Below are positions 4,796-58,616 of a stretch of DNA of 64,000 nt, one piece after another. The position numbers and the translations under genes were made by a program. Source of the stretch: Anaerolineae bacterium (GTDB lineage: Bacteria; Chloroflexota; Anaerolineae; Aggregatilineales; Phototrophicaceae); assembly GCA_034437755.1 (NCBI GenBank), contig DAOTTV010000078.1, positions 1 through 64,000 of the forward strand, written 5' to 3'. Each line of letters opens with the position of its first letter. Positions within the stretch are counted from its first letter, which is position 1. The notes under the pieces are model-generated. The model saw only the letters and a list, made by a program, of their open reading frames with translations, was not told the DNA's origin and searched no databases.

Positions 4796-4960
4796 GTAAC
4801 TACTCAGGTAGAGTCTTCTTGTGGGGTTTCACCCCACGCCCCAGCAGGTGATGTCTCCCTTGCACCCCAATTTTGCCGAACGCAAAGCGTTCGGCGAGTA
4901 CAGGTTCAACGGACGATCGTCCTTCGTGGGGGTTCGGGGGCAACGCCCCTGAGTAGTTAC
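4796..4960. mobile_element. MITE-like non-autonomous element, family 1, copy A (165 bp).
   Basis: Perfect 13-bp terminal inverted repeats GTAACTACTCAGG / CCTGAGTAGTTAC. It is flanked by a perfect 8-bp direct repeat GACATCGC (4788-4795 and 4961-4968). It is about 90% identical to a second copy at 51206-51368. Internal palindromes include GGACGATCGTCC and GCCGAACGC-AAA-GCGTTCGGC. Confidence 0.6.
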
Positions 4961-9657: not shown

Positions 9658-10893
9658 GTGAACCTGATCGAAGTCTTTCGCATTGCGGTTGAGAGCTTAC
9701 TGATTAATCGCCTGCGTTCAGTATTGACGACGCTGGGCATCATCATCGGTGTTGGCGCGGTGATCTCGCTGGTCAGCCTTGGGCGCGGAGTCGAGACGTA
9801 CATCGACGGTGAGTTCGAGGCGCTGGGCGCGACTCTGCTCGAAGTGAGTTCTACCCAACCTGAGAGCCAGAACCGCACGCGGGTTGAGCCACTGAGTACG
9901 ATCACAGCCGAAGCCCTGACGAATCCAGCGATTGCGCCGAGCATCCGGCAAGTGGCGATGGGCTATCGCGTGTTCGGCGGGGTGACGGGTGAAGGGCAAC
10001 AAGTCAGCACGAATATACGGGGCGTGAGCGCCAATTACGACGACGTACAATCGTGGAATATGCTATACGGCAGTTTCATCAGCGAGCTAGAGACCGAGAC
10101 GACAGCACGAGTGGCGGTGTTAGGTCTGGATGTTGTCGAGGATTTGTACGCCGATCGCACTTTTAACCCTGTCGGGCGCAACATCCGCATTAATCAACGC
10201 GTATTTACGATCATCGGCGTGATGGAAGAGCGCGGCGGCGCGTTCGGTGCGAGTGAAGATAACGTGATCTTCATCCCGATCACTACCGCACAGACGCGCC
10301 TCGCCAATGCGCGCAGTCGCGATGGTGGCTACATCGTCAGTACAATCTACGTCGAAGTCATCAGCGAAGAACGTATCGACCAGGCGACCCGCGAGATTCA
10401 GACTTATCTCGATGATGCCCACGACATTCGTTTCGTCGATGAGCGTGATTATGATATTTCCAGCGATGCCGGTCTGCTGGATACAGTGGAGCAAATCAGC
10501 GGCACCCTGACGATCTTTCTGGGGATGATCGCCGGTATCTCTCTGTTAGTAGGCGGCATCGGTATCATGAATATCATGCTCGTTTCAGTAACCGAGCGCA
10601 CGCGCGAGATTGGCTTACGCAAAGCTGTAGGCGCGAAGTCCAGCAACATCTTAACCCAATTCCTGATTGAAAGCACGATTTTATCGCTCATCGGCGGGTT
10701 TTTGGGCATCGGGGTCGGGTATATCGCGGCGATTGTCGGCACGAATCTATACGAACAATTGACGATGACTATCGAACCGGATGTTGTCTTGCTGGCGACC
10801 GGTGTTAGTACTTTCGTTGGTATCTTCTTCGGCTATTACCCAGCCCAGCGCGCCGCCCGTATGAAGCCAATCGATGCCTTACGTTTTGAGTAA
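9658..10893 (+). CDS. ABC transporter permease with the FtsX/MacB fold.
   Basis: MacB_PCD-like periplasmic domain followed by a C-terminal FtsX 4-TM module (GGIGIMNIMLVSVTERTREIGLRKAVGA). GTG start abuts the upstream stop. Confidence 0.85.
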   Translation: MNLIEVFRIAVESLLINRLRSVLTTLGIIIGVGAVISLVSLGRGVETYIDGEFEALGATLLEVSSTQPESQNRTRVEPLSTITAEALTNPAIAPSIRQVAMGYRVFGGVTGEGQQVSTNIRGVSANYDDVQSWNMLYGSFISELETETTARVAVLGLDVVEDLYADRTFNPVGRNIRINQRVFTIIGVMEERGGAFGASEDNVIFIPITTAQTRLANARSRDGGYIVSTIYVEVISEERIDQATREIQTYLDDAHDIRFVDERDYDISSDAGLLDTVEQISGTLTIFLGMIAGISLLVGGIGIMNIMLVSVTERTREIGLRKAVGAKSSNILTQFLIESTILSLIGGFLGIGVGYIAAIVGTNLYEQLTMTIEPDVVLLATGVSTFVGIFFGYYPAQRAARMKPIDALRFE

Positions 10894-10909: not shown

Positions 10910-12121
10910 ATGTTTGAGAATTATCGCATCGCCCTATCGAGCCTCAACAGCAATAAACTACGTACAGCCTTGACGATGCTGGGCGTGACGATCGGTGTGG
11001 CGGCGGTGATTATCCTCGTCTCGGTCGGGCAATCGTTTGAGACTTTTGTGCGGCAACAGTTCGAGGGACTGGGTGTTAACTTGATCTTCGTCGTGCCTAA
11101 CTTCAACGCTAACGACATCGAACCGCTGACGCTGGATGATGTGGCGGTGCTATCTGACCCCTCCCGCGTGCCGGATGCACGGGCTGTCATCCCACAGAAC
11201 AACTTTAACCGTGATGTGCGCGCTGGCACGAACGAAACTCGCCTCAATATCGAAGCGACAGGCTTGCAATACATGCAGTTATGGGGGCGCGAGTTGGTCG
11301 CGGGGCGCTTCTTCGATGAGGGCGAGCTAGAGACTAATGCGCGGGTTGCCGTGCTAGAAGTCGACGTGATGGAACAACTCTTCCCGGACTCATTTCCGAT
11401 CGGGCAGACAGTACGCATCGACGACGTGCAGTTCACCGTGATTGGTGTACTCGCACCACAGACGGGCTTGCTCAGTATCGGTGGGTCGAACCGTATCATC
11501 ATTCCCTACACAACAGCCTACACCCGCTTGAACAATTCACGGGTGTTGAGTGGCGAGCAAGCCGTCGATTTTATCATCGTACAGGGGCGCAACCCGGACT
11601 TATCGGCTGACGTTGTACGACAGATTCAACTCGCGTTACGCGATGCGCGCGGTGTTGGCTTCCGCGATGAAGATAACTTTCTCGTCATCAGCCAGAACGA
11701 AACGCTCAATACACTCGACGAAATCACATCTTTGCTGACGGTCTTTCTGGCGATTCTCGCGGGGATTTCCTTGCTGGTGGGCGGCATCGGCATCATGAAT
11801 ATCATGCTCGTCACCGTGACGGAGCGCACCAAAGAAATTGGATTACGCAAGGCAGTTGGTGCCAAAAATTTCGATATTCTGCTACAATTTTTAACGGAGG
11901 CTGTCATTCTCTCGCTGTTAGGGGGCACCGTCGGCGTGATGATCGCGGCCGTTGTCTCGACAATCGTGACGGTTCTCGTCGCAGATTTATCGGTTGCCAT
12001 CCAGCTAAGCAGTATTGGGCTAGCGGTGTTCGTCTCGGTTGCGGTAGGCGTACTCAGTGGCATCTACCCTGCCAACCGCGCCGCCGGCTTAAACCCAATC
12101 GATGCCTTGCGTTATGAATAG
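10910..12121 (+). CDS. Second FtsX/MacB-type ABC permease, a paralog of the previous gene.
   Basis: Same architecture and conserved motif (GGIGIMNIMLVTVTERTKEIGLRKAVGA). Confidence 0.85.
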   Translation: MFENYRIALSSLNSNKLRTALTMLGVTIGVAAVIILVSVGQSFETFVRQQFEGLGVNLIFVVPNFNANDIEPLTLDDVAVLSDPSRVPDARAVIPQNNFNRDVRAGTNETRLNIEATGLQYMQLWGRELVAGRFFDEGELETNARVAVLEVDVMEQLFPDSFPIGQTVRIDDVQFTVIGVLAPQTGLLSIGGSNRIIIPYTTAYTRLNNSRVLSGEQAVDFIIVQGRNPDLSADVVRQIQLALRDARGVGFRDEDNFLVISQNETLNTLDEITSLLTVFLAILAGISLLVGGIGIMNIMLVTVTERTKEIGLRKAVGAKNFDILLQFLTEAVILSLLGGTVGVMIAAVVSTIVTVLVADLSVAIQLSSIGLAVFVSVAVGVLSGIYPANRAAGLNPIDALRYE

Positions 12122-13343: not shown

Positions 13344-13426
13344 GGGGGAGTGGCGGAATTGGCAGACGCGCATGACTTAGGATCATGTCTCTTTGTGAGG
13401 TGAGGGTTCGAGTCCCTCCTTCCCCA
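13344..13426 (+). tRNA. tRNA-Leu (anticodon UAG); class II with a long variable arm; CCA not encoded.
   Basis: Manual fold: acceptor GGGGGAG/CTTCCCC (one G-U), D-arm GCGGAATTGGCAGACGCG, anticodon stem CATGA/TCATG with loop CTTAGGA (U33, G37), variable arm, T-arm GAGGG-TTCGAGT-CCCTC, discriminator A. Confidence 0.85.
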
Positions 13427-44096: not shown

Positions 44097-44252
44097 GGTG
44101 GCTGTCCTCGTTTTGTGTTGCGGAGATAGTTAAGTTATTGTAGCAGGATATTCAGATGTGAACTAGCGTTTTCACATCAGTGACGCATGAGTAACAAACC
44201 ACACGTTGACCGCACTGCCGCTGTCGGGGACAATGCAGGTATTCATTTACTC

Positions 44253-44390
44253 GGTTCTTTCGTATCTTGCGTGGTCAAGCTCTTTTTGTTCCCTTTTTTC
44301 AAAATGAACAAAGTCAAGGAACAACAGTTCCTTGTAGGGGTGCGAGGGCAAAGCCCCTGCAACAAAAACCACGCGACATCCCAAAGAGCC
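44253..44390. mobile_element. MITE-like element family 2, copy 1 (138 bp), 29 bp upstream of folD.
   Basis: Imperfect TIRs GGTTCTTTCG...CCAAAGAGCC (ISL3-like GGCTCTTT ends). Flanked by an 8-bp direct repeat ATTTACT(C/T). It is about 90% identical to 53537-53720 apart from a 46-bp indel. Internal hairpins (GTTCC...GGAAC, GGGC-AAA-GCCC). Confidence 0.5.
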
Positions 44391-44419
44391 ATTTACTTTT
44401 AATCACAGGAGAGTGTCAA

Positions 44420-45304
44420 TTGACAGCCCAAATCATCGATGGTCGTGCCGTTGCCAAGCGTATTCAAGCCGAGATCAAAGAACAGGTCGCCGCGTTTAAA
44501 GCTCAACATGGCATCGTACCCGGCTTAGGGGTCGTTATGGCAGGCGATGACCCCGCCTCGGCGATGTACGTCCGCATGAAGCAACGCCGATGCGAGCGCG
44601 TCGGCTTCGAGTCCTTCACGACGACAATTGCCAAGGATACCACACAGGAAGCAGTCGAAGGTTATGTGAAAGCCTACAATGACGACCCAGCGGTGCATGG
44701 TATTCTCGTACAGTTGCCCCTGCCCGATCACATCGACGAAGAAGCGGTCTTGGCACGAGTAAGCCTCGCCAAAGATGTCGATGGCTTCCATCCGGTTAAT
44801 ATCGGGGCGCTAGCCATGAAAGGACGCACGCCGACCTTCACCCCGGCAACCCCGACCGGTTGCATGACCTTGATCGACGAGACGGGGATTGATCCCTCTG
44901 GCAAGATCGCGGTCGTTCTCGGGCGCAGTAACATCGTCGGGATGCCGATGGCGATGATGCTAAACAAAGCCAACGCCACCGTGACGATTGTCCACAGCCG
45001 CACGCCAAACGACGCCGATATCATCGCAACAGCTGATATTCTGGTCGCGGCGATTGGCATCCCGGAATACGTGAAAGCAGATTGGATCAAGCCCGGCGCA
45101 GTCGTGATCGACGTAGGCACGAATAAAGTCGATGCGCCGGATACCGAAAAAGGCTACAAGTGGGTCGGCGATGTCGCCTTCGACGCGGCGAAAGAGGTTG
45201 CCGGTGCGATCACCATTGTTCCGGGTGGTGTCGGGCCGTTGACGATTACATCGCTCTTGCAGAACACGATGAAAGCCGCGCAAATGAGCGTCGCTGGGGC
45301 CTAA
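44420..45304 (+). CDS. folD: Bifunctional methylenetetrahydrofolate dehydrogenase/methenyl-THF cyclohydrolase.
   Basis: LTAQIIDGRAVAK.., YVRMKQR.., Rossmann GRSNIVGMP. TTG start at 44420 with an AGGAGAG RBS. The longer track ORF from 44267 reads through the upstream repeat element and is rejected. Confidence 0.9.
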   Translation: MTAQIIDGRAVAKRIQAEIKEQVAAFKAQHGIVPGLGVVMAGDDPASAMYVRMKQRRCERVGFESFTTTIAKDTTQEAVEGYVKAYNDDPAVHGILVQLPLPDHIDEEAVLARVSLAKDVDGFHPVNIGALAMKGRTPTFTPATPTGCMTLIDETGIDPSGKIAVVLGRSNIVGMPMAMMLNKANATVTIVHSRTPNDADIIATADILVAAIGIPEYVKADWIKPGAVVIDVGTNKVDAPDTEKGYKWVGDVAFDAAKEVAGAITIVPGGVGPLTITSLLQNTMKAAQMSVAGA

Positions 45305-51205: not shown

Positions 51206-51368
51206 GCAACTACTCAGGTAGAGCCTTCTTGTGGGGTTTACCCCACGCCCCAGCAGGGGATGTCTCCCTTGCACCCCATTTTTGCCGAACGCTTCGTGTT
51301 TGGCGGGTACAGGTTCAAAGGACGATCGTCCTTTATGGGGTTCGGGGGCAACGCTCCTGAGTAGTTAC
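51206..51368. mobile_element. MITE-like element family 1, copy B (163 bp).
   Basis: TIRs GCAACTACTCAGG / CCTGAGTAGTTAC (12 of 13 match). Perfect 8-bp target-site duplication AGTCACTC (51198-51205 and 51369-51376). Homologous to 4796-4960. Confidence 0.6.
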
Positions 51369-53472: not shown

Positions 53473-53536
53473 ATTAGCGGATATTCATCATCGGACAATA
53501 TGCGTCCGGTGCTGAATGCGCTATGATTGAGTTTAT

Positions 53537-53720
53537 GGGTCTTTCGTATTTTGCGTGGTCACGCTCTTTTTGTTCCCTTTTTGAAAAAAGGGAACGCCAA
53601 AAACTTTTGCTTTTTGAACGCTGTTCGTTCAAAATGAACAAGGTCAAGGAACTATCTTTCCTTATGGGAGTGCGGGGGCAAAGCCCCTGCCACAAAAACC
53701 ACGCGACATTCCAAAGAGCC
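53537..53720. mobile_element. MITE-like element family 2, copy 2 (184 bp), 41 bp upstream of the F420 gene cluster.
   Basis: TIRs GGGTCTTTCG...CCAAAGAGCC. Perfect 8-bp target-site duplication GAGTTTAT (53529-53536 and 53721-53728). Carries 46 bp not present in copy 1. Confidence 0.5.
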
Positions 53721-53761
53721 GAGTTTATTATTCAGAGTATGAGATGAGAAAGTGATAGATT

Positions 53762-54439
53762 GTGACGGAACAAGACGCACCGCTTATCAAATCCATTGCT
53801 GTACTCGGTGGTACAGGCAAAGAGGGATCAGCATTGGCGAAACGCTGGGCATTGCACGGTTACCGCGTAGTCATCGGCTCGCGTAATTTAGACAAAGCTC
53901 AACGGGCTGTCGAAGAGATGAACGCCGAGCTAGAAAGCGATTATCTCGTCGGCATGACTAACGAGGATGCCGCGCGCACAGCAGGCCTAGTCGTACTCAG
54001 CGTGCCCTATAGCGCCCATCGCGCCACGCTGGAGAGCGTCAAAGATCATCTCACGGGGAAAATATTGGTCGATGTCACTGTACCAATTATCCCACCGGAT
54101 GTCAGCACGGTGACGATCCCGGAGGGATCATCGGCGGCACAAGAAGCGCAAGCCTTGCTCGGTGATGATGTGCGGGTCGTCTCGGCATTCCAAAACGTGA
54201 GTTACGTCAAGCTGAAGCAGTTAGGCGCGCGCGTCGATTGTGATGTGCTGATTACAGGGGATGATGCCGACGCAAAAGAAGACGTGATCGAACTCGTCAA
54301 AGCGGCGGGTATGCGCGGTATCGACATCGGGCCATTAGCGAATGCTGTCGTTGCCGAAGCCCTGACACCAGCATTGCTCTACATCAACAAGAAGTATAAG
54401 GTTAAGGGTGCGGGGATTCGCATCACAGGGATTGAATGA
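53762..54439 (+). CDS. npdG: F420-dependent NADP(H) oxidoreductase (NpdG/Fno family).
   Basis: Rossmann fold IAVLGGTGKEGSALAKRWALHGYRVVIGSR and NpdG-like length of 225 aa. GTG start. Confidence 0.8.
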   Translation: MTEQDAPLIKSIAVLGGTGKEGSALAKRWALHGYRVVIGSRNLDKAQRAVEEMNAELESDYLVGMTNEDAARTAGLVVLSVPYSAHRATLESVKDHLTGKILVDVTVPIIPPDVSTVTIPEGSSAAQEAQALLGDDVRVVSAFQNVSYVKLKQLGARVDCDVLITGDDADAKEDVIELVKAAGMRGIDIGPLANAVVAEALTPALLYINKKYKVKGAGIRITGIE

Positions 54440-57581: not shown

Positions 57582-58589
57582 ATGTCCGATCGAGTAGGCT
57601 TATACTTGCAGGATGACTTCACGCTGGCGGATTCGATTGATTTCGTCAAGTATGCAGAGGCGCGCGGTTTCGAGAGCGTCTGGCAATCCGAGACGCGCCT
57701 CGTGCGCGATTGCATCGTGCCGATGGCGGCTTATGCGACCGTTACCTCGCGCATTCGCATTGGTGCCGGCGTGATGAATATCTGGACGCGCAACGTGGCG
57801 ACGATGGCAGCGGAACTAGTGACGCTCGATGACATCGCGCGTGATCGTATCATCTGCGGGCTAGGCACGTGGTACGACCCGCTCGCGGCGCAGGTCGGCG
57901 TGACGCGGCGCAAGCACCTGTTCGCCATGCGCGAAGTGTTGACAACCCTCAAACGTCTCATGCAGTTCGAGCGCGTGACGTATCGTGGCGAGTTCGTCCA
58001 TCTCGATGACGTGCATCTCGACATCGTGACCGGACGGCGACAAGCGCGCCGCATCCCGTTTTATATCGGCGCGACCGGCGCAAAGACGCTGGCACTCGCG
58101 GGGGAAATCGCCGATGGCGTGCTGTTGAATTATCTCGTATCGCCCCATTACAACGAGATGGCGATCGCCCAGATCGAAATCGGCGCGAAGCAAGCCGACC
58201 GCCTCTTACATCACATCGACCGCCCGCAATTGATCGTCTGCTCTGTCAGTGTTAATCGTGATGATGCGCTGAACACCGCCCGTCGTCTCGTGGCACAGTA
58301 CATCGTGCAACAACCCCAGCTGATGCGCGCCAACGGCATGCCGCAGGGCTTGATTGACGAACTGGCGCAAGTTTTACCGCCGACAGCCTCATTAGAACGC
58401 ATCGAACAGGCGATGACGCTAGTGCCTGATGATGTCGTACAGATGGTCACAGCGTCCGGCACGCCCGATGAAGTCAAAGCTAAAGTGCGCCAGTATGTCG
58501 CTTCTGGCACGACGATGCCGGTGCTATATCCGCTCGGGCGTGATGTGCGTTTGCTGATTGATACGTTCGCAAATGGCTATTCAAGCTGA
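57582..58589 (+). CDS. Luciferase-like monooxygenase (LLM) class F420-dependent oxidoreductase.
   Basis: TIM-barrel LLM motifs (FESVWQSET, IGAGVMNIW). Start at MSDRVG with a GGGGAGAG RBS. Confidence 0.8.
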   Translation: MSDRVGLYLQDDFTLADSIDFVKYAEARGFESVWQSETRLVRDCIVPMAAYATVTSRIRIGAGVMNIWTRNVATMAAELVTLDDIARDRIICGLGTWYDPLAAQVGVTRRKHLFAMREVLTTLKRLMQFERVTYRGEFVHLDDVHLDIVTGRRQARRIPFYIGATGAKTLALAGEIADGVLLNYLVSPHYNEMAIAQIEIGAKQADRLLHHIDRPQLIVCSVSVNRDDALNTARRLVAQYIVQQPQLMRANGMPQGLIDELAQVLPPTASLERIEQAMTLVPDDVVQMVTASGTPDEVKAKVRQYVASGTTMPVLYPLGRDVRLLIDTFANGYSS

Positions 58590-58616
58590 TTGATACGTTC
58601 GCAAATGGCTATTCAA
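58553..58616. repeat. Perfect 32-bp tandem duplication (two copies) spanning the stop codon of the LLM gene.
   Basis: GCTGATTGATACGTTCGCAAATGGCTATTCAA repeated head-to-tail at 58553-58584 and 58585-58616. Confidence 0.7.

Follow-up and report, generated by a model that had tools for sequence, protein, structure and literature searches.

Directly upstream of folD, a contig of an Anaerolineae bacterium (GenBank assembly GCA_034437755.1, contig DAOTTV010000078.1) carries a short, hairpin-rich sequence that recurs once more within the stretch analyzed here, which comprises positions 1 to 64,000 of the contig and is referred to as the window. What this sequence is, and whether it does anything for folD, is the question that the locus raises. 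A preliminary description had proposed that it is a MITE (miniature inverted-repeat transposable element) with ends like those of the ISL3 family of insertion sequences (ISs) and an 8-bp target-site duplication, and that it could be transcribed as a structured leader. Our results indicate that the element is very probably a short, non-coding and non-autonomous derivative of an ISL3-family IS, that is, an ISL3-type MITE. The proposal of a MITE with ISL3-like ends is supported by the finding that the same terminus bounds an element encoding an ISL3 transposase and also many short elements with perfect duplications.

The element is present in the window in two copies, which lie 9.3 kb apart within the 64 kb (Table 1). 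Copy 1 begins with the letters GGTTCTTTCG and ends with CCAAAGAGCC, and 29 nt separate its end from the TTG start codon of folD (44420-44422; the frame was checked). Copy 2 ends 41 bp before the GTG start, at 53762, of an F420-oxidoreductase-like gene. The parts common to both copies are 88-95% identical, and the extra segment of about 46 bp in copy 2 duplicates the arm before it in inverted orientation and completes a hairpin (GTTCCCTTTTT/AAAAAGGGAAC). Each copy is bounded by terminal inverted repeats (TIRs) of 23 bp, with 17 of the 23 positions matching when the left end is compared with the reverse complement of the right end. The coordinates, termini and flanks of the copies and the 29-bp distance to folD had all been given correctly in the preliminary description, including the flanking 8-mers, which agree at 7/8 positions at copy 1 and at 8/8 at copy 2. 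The imperfect inverted termini described there are also present, but they extend over 23 bp and not over about 10 bp. Because the TIRs reach this far, the long-range GCGTGGT...ACCACGC pairing that had been listed as an internal stem-loop does exist but is simply the inner half of the TIR. When we scanned the window with a degenerate TIR pattern (GGNTCTTTSGNATNTYGCGTGGT), we obtained four matches, which are the four ends of the two copies, even with three mismatches permitted (0.02 are expected from shuffled sequences). Sensitive local searches of the 64-kb window detected no third copy or fragment.

Elements of the ISL3 family are about 1.2-2.3 kb long, encode one DDE transposase, have inverted repeats of about 15-39 bp that often start with GGCTCTT, and are flanked by 8-bp direct repeats. 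Like these ISs, the window element shows the terminal sequence type (a repeat of 15-39 bp with a GG(C/T)TCTT start, here GGTTCTTTCG... and, on the opposite side, GGCTCTTTGG...) and the 8-bp duplication. Unlike them, it measures 138-184 bp and encodes nothing, and hence it can only be a passenger of an ISL3 transposase. We searched for the TIR pattern in one genome of each prokaryotic species and found at least 42 loci, nearly all of them in metagenome-assembled genomes (MAGs) of Chloroflexota (Anaerolineae, Anaerolineales, Thermoflexales and Promineifilaceae). The right TIR of copy 1 differs from the Chloroflexota consensus TIR at one position. Many of the matches listed are located at a distance of about 90-110 bp from the end of a contig, as is expected of a multicopy IS. 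A 1,405-bp element in an Anaerolineae MAG (L031:3989-5393) carries the same 23-bp TIRs at both ends. Its open reading frame (ORF) of 418 aa matches the Pfam domain DDE_Tnp_ISL3 (E=1.6e-63), and the ISL3 zinc ribbon and helix-turn-helix are found below threshold. The same arrangement is seen at a second locus (L017), where a similar ORF matches DDE_Tnp_ISL3 (E=2.8e-55) and passes the cut-off for the zinc ribbon. Transposase-encoding ISL3 elements with these termini are thereby documented in other Chloroflexota genomes, the termini bounding the ISL3 DDE transposase itself.

The same termini also bound short elements. Counting the window element and the loci among the matches listed, we delimited 14 short TIR-bounded elements of 111-213 bp, at least 12 of them outside the window, whose interiors are unrelated. 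The flanking duplications are 8/8 in eight of them, 7/8 in two and 6/8 in one. Since the flanking 8-mers of a given site would match perfectly by chance with a probability of about 1.5e-5, these duplications indicate that the short forms have transposed in the manner typical of ISL3. The window element has in common with three of the loci (L004, from Promineifilaceae, L023 and L039) a subterminal motif, TIR-N-(G/T)(C/T)AGGGGC, and this likeness goes beyond the TIR that the search pattern imposed. Outside the TIR, its interior shows no similarity to the transposase-encoding elements L031 and L017. The duplicated 8-mers contain 71% A+T vs 45% for the window, which argues that insertion prefers AT-rich targets. 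Moreover, the element has several features of a MITE: its size is below about 500 bp, it has short ORFs only and no coding capacity, and it is absent from the orthologous sites at the level of spacer length and content, as described below. When both copies, translated in six frames, were compared with 5.8 billion proteins, no homolog was found, with the limited power of a composite query and at most 8,000 candidates. Altogether, a 23-bp ISL3-type terminus is common to autonomous ISs and to many MITE families of unrelated sequence across Chloroflexota MAGs, and the terminus pattern could be used for repeat masking and for better annotation of MAGs in this phylum.

Whether the element also occurs upstream of folD in related species was examined in five related genomes (L044, L046/L047, L048 and L049/L050). 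Matches to itself aside, FolD has its nearest relatives at 75-81% identity. All five genomes retain the divergent arrangement of a guanylate-kinase-like gene, gmk, on the minus strand and folD on the plus strand, and their gmk-folD spacers (163-282 bp) are all free of TIR-like sequences and show no similarity to the element. The spacer of the closest relative, L044, is 178 bp long. When 146 bp, corresponding to the element plus one copy of the duplication, are removed in silico from the 323-bp spacer of the window, 177 bp are left. The element is thus absent from five syntenic spacers, and the interpretation as a mobile element stands.

Two metagenome contigs closely match the window. A microbial-mat contig from ENA (ERZ922773, PRJEB25599, Andean microbial ecosystems) is 99.88% identical to the window over 20.9 kb, and a contig from JGI (3300012009; L045) is 99.95% identical. 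Copy 1 is found in both. The JGI contig terminates within copy 2, precisely where copies 1 and 2 diverge, which can be attributed to the fact that repeats break short-read assemblies. The family-specific right and left termini had no matches in two scans of JGI metagenomes, and these scans are uninformative: L045 has the exact right terminus and yet the scan was empty, so the collection evidently does not include this organism. As a separate observation, the window has an A at 44345 where both contigs have a G, and this is the sole difference in copy 1. The G version (GCGGGGGC) agrees with copy 2 and extends a GGGGC/GCCCC stem. In copy 2, the two bases at the centre of the hairpin loop (53583-53584) are GA in the window, and the ENA contig (L001) has TC instead, which is an exact inversion of the centre of the palindrome (TTTTTGAAAAAA vs TTTTTTCAAAAA). 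Either a flip of the hairpin loop or an artefact of assembly could account for this inversion.

From what is known of the family, the history of the element may be outlined as follows. An ISL3 DDE transposase encoded elsewhere would recognize the 23-bp TIRs, excise or copy the element and insert it via a staggered 8-bp cut, and repair of this cut would generate the flanking 8-bp duplication. We infer that the element was mobilized in trans in this genome. AT-rich targets would be concentrated in intergenic, promoter-proximal DNA, which may be the reason why both copies are located just upstream of genes. Copy 1 would have entered the gmk-folD spacer after the split from the relatives whose FolD is at most 81% identical. 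It most probably landed at the target ATTTACTC, about 10 nt past the -10 hexamer of a putative native folD promoter. If so, the element would now be carried in the folD 5'-untranslated region (5'-UTR) as a self-contained hairpin that leaves the Shine-Dalgarno sequence and the TTG codon free, and its insertion is probably tolerated and not functional.

The putative promoter, TTGACC-17-GACAAT, is the sole sigma-70-like match in the spacer, where one match was found and 0.5 are expected by chance. If the element is excised in silico, the -35-like block of this site lines up with a short block conserved in the relatives (TTGAC/GGCACAC), which, as counted from their spacers, sits 47-68 nt upstream of their start codons. 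Judged by this consensus match and by the conserved block, the site may be the native folD promoter. In the predicted fold of the leader, the element pairs with itself and both AGGAG and TTG are essentially unpaired. In addition, the plus strand of the folD spacer has no predicted intrinsic terminator. For these two reasons, the insertion looks tolerable rather than functional. Across the promoter and terminator consensus scans, the counts were equal to chance. The proposal of the preliminary description that the element contains or abuts the folD promoter and 5'-UTR is plausible. The more specific model, in which the element lies within the 5'-UTR downstream of the promoter-like block and is neutral, has in our view about an even chance of being correct.

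Several observations weigh against the interpretation of the element as a mobilized MITE, or against the details of its proposed history. Only two copies of this specific sequence family were found anywhere, the JGI scans and the peptide search being empty. The two copies are about 88-95% identical and differ by the 46-bp indel, and this divergence suggests that the family may no longer be active. No ISL3 transposase was detected by tblastn in the 64-kb window. At L031, the single complete IS, the flanks match at 2/8 positions and thus show no duplication. The case for an empty site in the relatives consists of spacer length and absence of the element, their spacers being too diverged for a base-level junction; even coding DNA is only about 70-74% identical, so that a base-level alignment to L044 is meaningless. 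Finally, the promoter assignment is no better than chance and the conserved block is short.

The alternative that survives best accepts that the element is a MITE by origin and holds that it has since been co-opted for regulation, either because an outward-facing -35-like GCGACA, located within the right TIR, combines with the flank into a hybrid promoter or because a leader hairpin tunes the stability or translation of the folD mRNA. We consider this unlikely. Relative to the gene that follows, both copies point the same way, and 29 and 41 bp separate their ends from its start, but two of two copies are co-oriented by chance with a probability of 0.5. At copy 2, GCGACA-17-TATTAT bridges the right TIR and the flank; this hybrid promoter is, however, one match where 0.5 are expected by chance, and the -35 of copy 1 lacks an acceptable -10 at 16-18 nt, the best candidate by eye being TTTAAT at 19 nt. 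Outward promoters are known in ISL3 elements and in several bacterial MITEs (PMC9330008; PMC10969869). Among the matches listed, roughly every second one of the related short elements has a possible start codon no more than about 80 bp away, although the short intergenic regions of these genomes make such proximity expected anyway. Moreover, folD expression in the relatives proceeds without the element. The stronger version of this idea, in which the element has been domesticated in the regulation of both folD and the F420-oxidoreductase-like gene, through the -35 of its TIR or through an effect of the hairpin on mRNA stability, is quite improbable. If it were true, the ISL3-MITE superfamily would systematically rewire promoter-proximal regions across several Chloroflexota orders.

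Another possibility is that the short form was never mobilized, and that the two copies are remnants of full-length ISs that suffered deletions in situ, or products of recombination. The fact that only two copies are known, which are set apart by the 46-bp indel and about 10% substitutions, would fit this explanation. Against it, the two copies agree in their interior and in their junctions and contain no transposase remnant, and yet their target duplications differ. Hence, either the short form transposed or two identical deletions occurred independently. In addition, multi-copy short families with perfect duplications exist elsewhere (128 bp in the MAG Bse_26; 132-161 bp, at six loci, in the MAG JTS-AC224). 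Given these data, we regard an origin by deletion as very unlikely.

With regard to RNA, a scan of the whole window against Rfam at gathering thresholds returned only a tRNA at 13344, and a sensitive scan in E-value mode of positions 44097-44440, the gmk-folD spacer with copy 1, returned two matches at the level of hairpin noise (E = 3.7 and 7). A match to an Rfam family would have led to reclassification of the element, and its lack leaves the mobile reading in place. The predicted fold is strong, with -50.9 kcal/mol on the plus strand (z = -5.6) and -50.5 kcal/mol on the minus strand (z = -4.4). As both strands fold equally well, this structure reflects the palindromy of the DNA, namely the TIRs and the internal hairpins, and not a strand-specific RNA, so that the proposed function as a structured leader is not supported. 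The few differences between the copies are not compensatory, in a comparison of two copies only. Thus, a dedicated cis-regulatory RNA leader of folD (a ZTP-/THF-type riboswitch or an attenuator) in place of a mobile element, as might be suggested by the location directly upstream of a folate-pathway gene and by the strong plus-strand fold, is essentially refuted by the Rfam results, by the equal fold of the minus strand, by the presence of the same sequence in front of the unrelated F420-oxidoreductase-like gene, by its absence upstream of folD in five syntenic relatives, and by TIRs and target duplications in common with ISL3 elements.

The element has practical consequences for the annotation of folD. 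The 345-aa ORF covers positions 44267-45304, and residue 57 of its product is the first of the FolD catalytic domain. Six homologs all have their first residue opposite the one that the TTG at 44420 encodes, and the start codons of four relatives align at this position in the DNA. The long N-terminal extension is therefore an artefact of reading through the element, as had been suggested. This false extension of 51 residues, most of which are translated element, has entered one public gene call, since the JGI contig is annotated with a 345-aa FolD; the ENA contig is annotated with the 294-aa protein. The 71-aa ORF at 44187-44402, previously regarded as spurious, is indeed so: it has no Pfam match, and 150 of its 216 nt derive from the element. 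The element accounts for both artefacts and also for assembly breaks at 53.58 kb.

Similar systems are known in other bacteria. Correia elements of Neisseria duplicate TA, and their transposase family, TIRs and duplication all differ from those of the window element. Their promoter and IHF functions have been demonstrated experimentally; the window element is known here from its sequence alone. Like the window element, Correia and other gene-upstream MITEs are small TIR-bounded repeats located directly upstream of genes, and they can be co-transcribed as hairpins or supply promoter hexamers (PMC10969869). A closer counterpart is a 187-nt MITE of Microcystis aeruginosa that is mobilized by ISL3 elements; its ends read GGCTCTTCG, its direct repeats measure 8 nt, and the ISL3 elements that match it are about 1.2 kb long (PMC11448079). 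Both elements are short and non-coding, have imperfect TIRs starting with GGCTCTT and 8-nt repeats, fold into stem-loops, and match at their ends transposase-encoding ISL3 elements of about 1.2-1.4 kb. They differ in their hosts, which are Cyanobacteria for the Microcystis MITE and apparently Chloroflexota for the window element (as judged indirectly by the taxa in which the TIR occurs and by the subterminal likeness to the Promineifilaceae element), in their unrelated interiors, and in the conserved terminus, which is longer in the window element (23 bp). Furthermore, activity of the Microcystis MITE is documented by a difference between strains, whereas that of the window element is deduced. 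Neither ISL3 nor Chloroflexi is mentioned in a review from 2024 on MITEs of prokaryotes (PMC10969869), and a targeted literature search found no description of the Chloroflexota group with the ISL3 terminus. The window element is a routine MITE in a promoter-proximal, AT-rich site, useful for annotation and unsurprising to a specialist.

Table 1. Features of the folD upstream region and of the two element copies (window coordinates).
Feature	Position	Strand	Remarks
MITE copy 1	44253-44390	+	138 bp, non-coding; in two independent metagenome assemblies
Left target-site duplication, copy 1 (ATTTACTC)	44245-44252		7/8 identical to 44391-44398
Right target-site duplication, copy 1 (ATTTACTT)	44391-44398		
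Left 23-bp TIR, copy 1 (GGTTCTTTCGTATCTTGCGTGGT)	44253-44275	+	
Right 23-bp TIR, copy 1 (GGCTCTTTGGGATGTCGCGTGGT, read on the minus strand)	44368-44390	-	
Predicted element-free junction			ATTTACT(C/T) joined directly to TTAATCAC
MITE copy 2	53537-53720	+	184 bp; same orientation as copy 1
Left target-site duplication, copy 2 (GAGTTTAT)	53529-53536		
Right target-site duplication, copy 2 (GAGTTTAT)	53721-53728		8/8 match
Segment found in copy 2 only	53583-53628	+	about 46 bp; boundaries uncertain by 1-2 nt
Promoter-like site (TTGACC-17-GACAAT)	44206-44234	+	sigma-70-like consensus match, upstream of the element
folD Shine-Dalgarno sequence (AGGAG)	44407-44411	+	17 nt past the end of the element
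folD coding sequence, true extent	44420-45304	+	294 aa, TTG start

Two genomes in the scan have several copies of one short family. In the Thermoflexales MAG JTS-AC224, six loci or more (L009, L014, L015, L019, L026 and L035) carry a short, G-rich family that has the same TIR of 23 bp, and of these three copies could be delimited (132-161 bp), one of them with a perfect 8-bp duplication. Such MITE families can thus be abundant within one genome. In the Chloroflexota MAG Bse_26, a 128-bp family occupies three loci, two of which hold complete copies with perfect duplications. The three pattern matches outside Chloroflexota (L016, L022 and L033) have neither a second terminus nor an ISL3 ORF nearby, and they were treated as chance because, by a rough estimate, about four chance matches are expected for the whole collection.

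The comparison with the relatives yielded two further observations. At L044:7031-8364, genes for an IS256-type transposase (Transposase_mut) and for ClpP lie between folD and an amidohydrolase gene, the latter two being adjacent in the window. At window positions 44140-44150, the gmk-folD spacer contains a conserved motif, GTAGCAGGATA, which also reads GTAGCAGGATA in L046/L047 and TTAGCAGGATG in L048. On the minus strand, where it includes TATCCT, this motif may serve the divergent guanylate-kinase-like gene as its -10 region.

The window holds other repeats as well. A second, unrelated MITE-like family, here called family 1, is found at 4796-4960 (165 bp) and 51206-51368 (163 bp). Its TIRs measure 13 bp (GTAACTACTCAGG), and the 8-bp duplications of the two copies are perfect (GACATCGC and AGTCACTC). 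Beside one TIR it has a hairpin, GGGGGCAACGCCCC, which resembles the GGGGCAAAGCCCC hairpin of the family upstream of folD (family 2). In the Anaerolineae MAG F14_31 (L034:~80-186), an ISL3 element is interrupted about 76 bp inside its terminus by a sequence starting with GTAACTACTCAGG, and family 1 is therefore also common to Anaerolineae MAGs. A perfect 32-bp tandem duplication, GCTGATTGATACGTTCGCAAATGGCTATTCAA twice, lies at 58553-58616. Lastly, the adjacent segments 10507-10892 and 11735-12120, at a distance of 1,228 bp, share 78-80% identity, suggestive of tandem paralogous genes.

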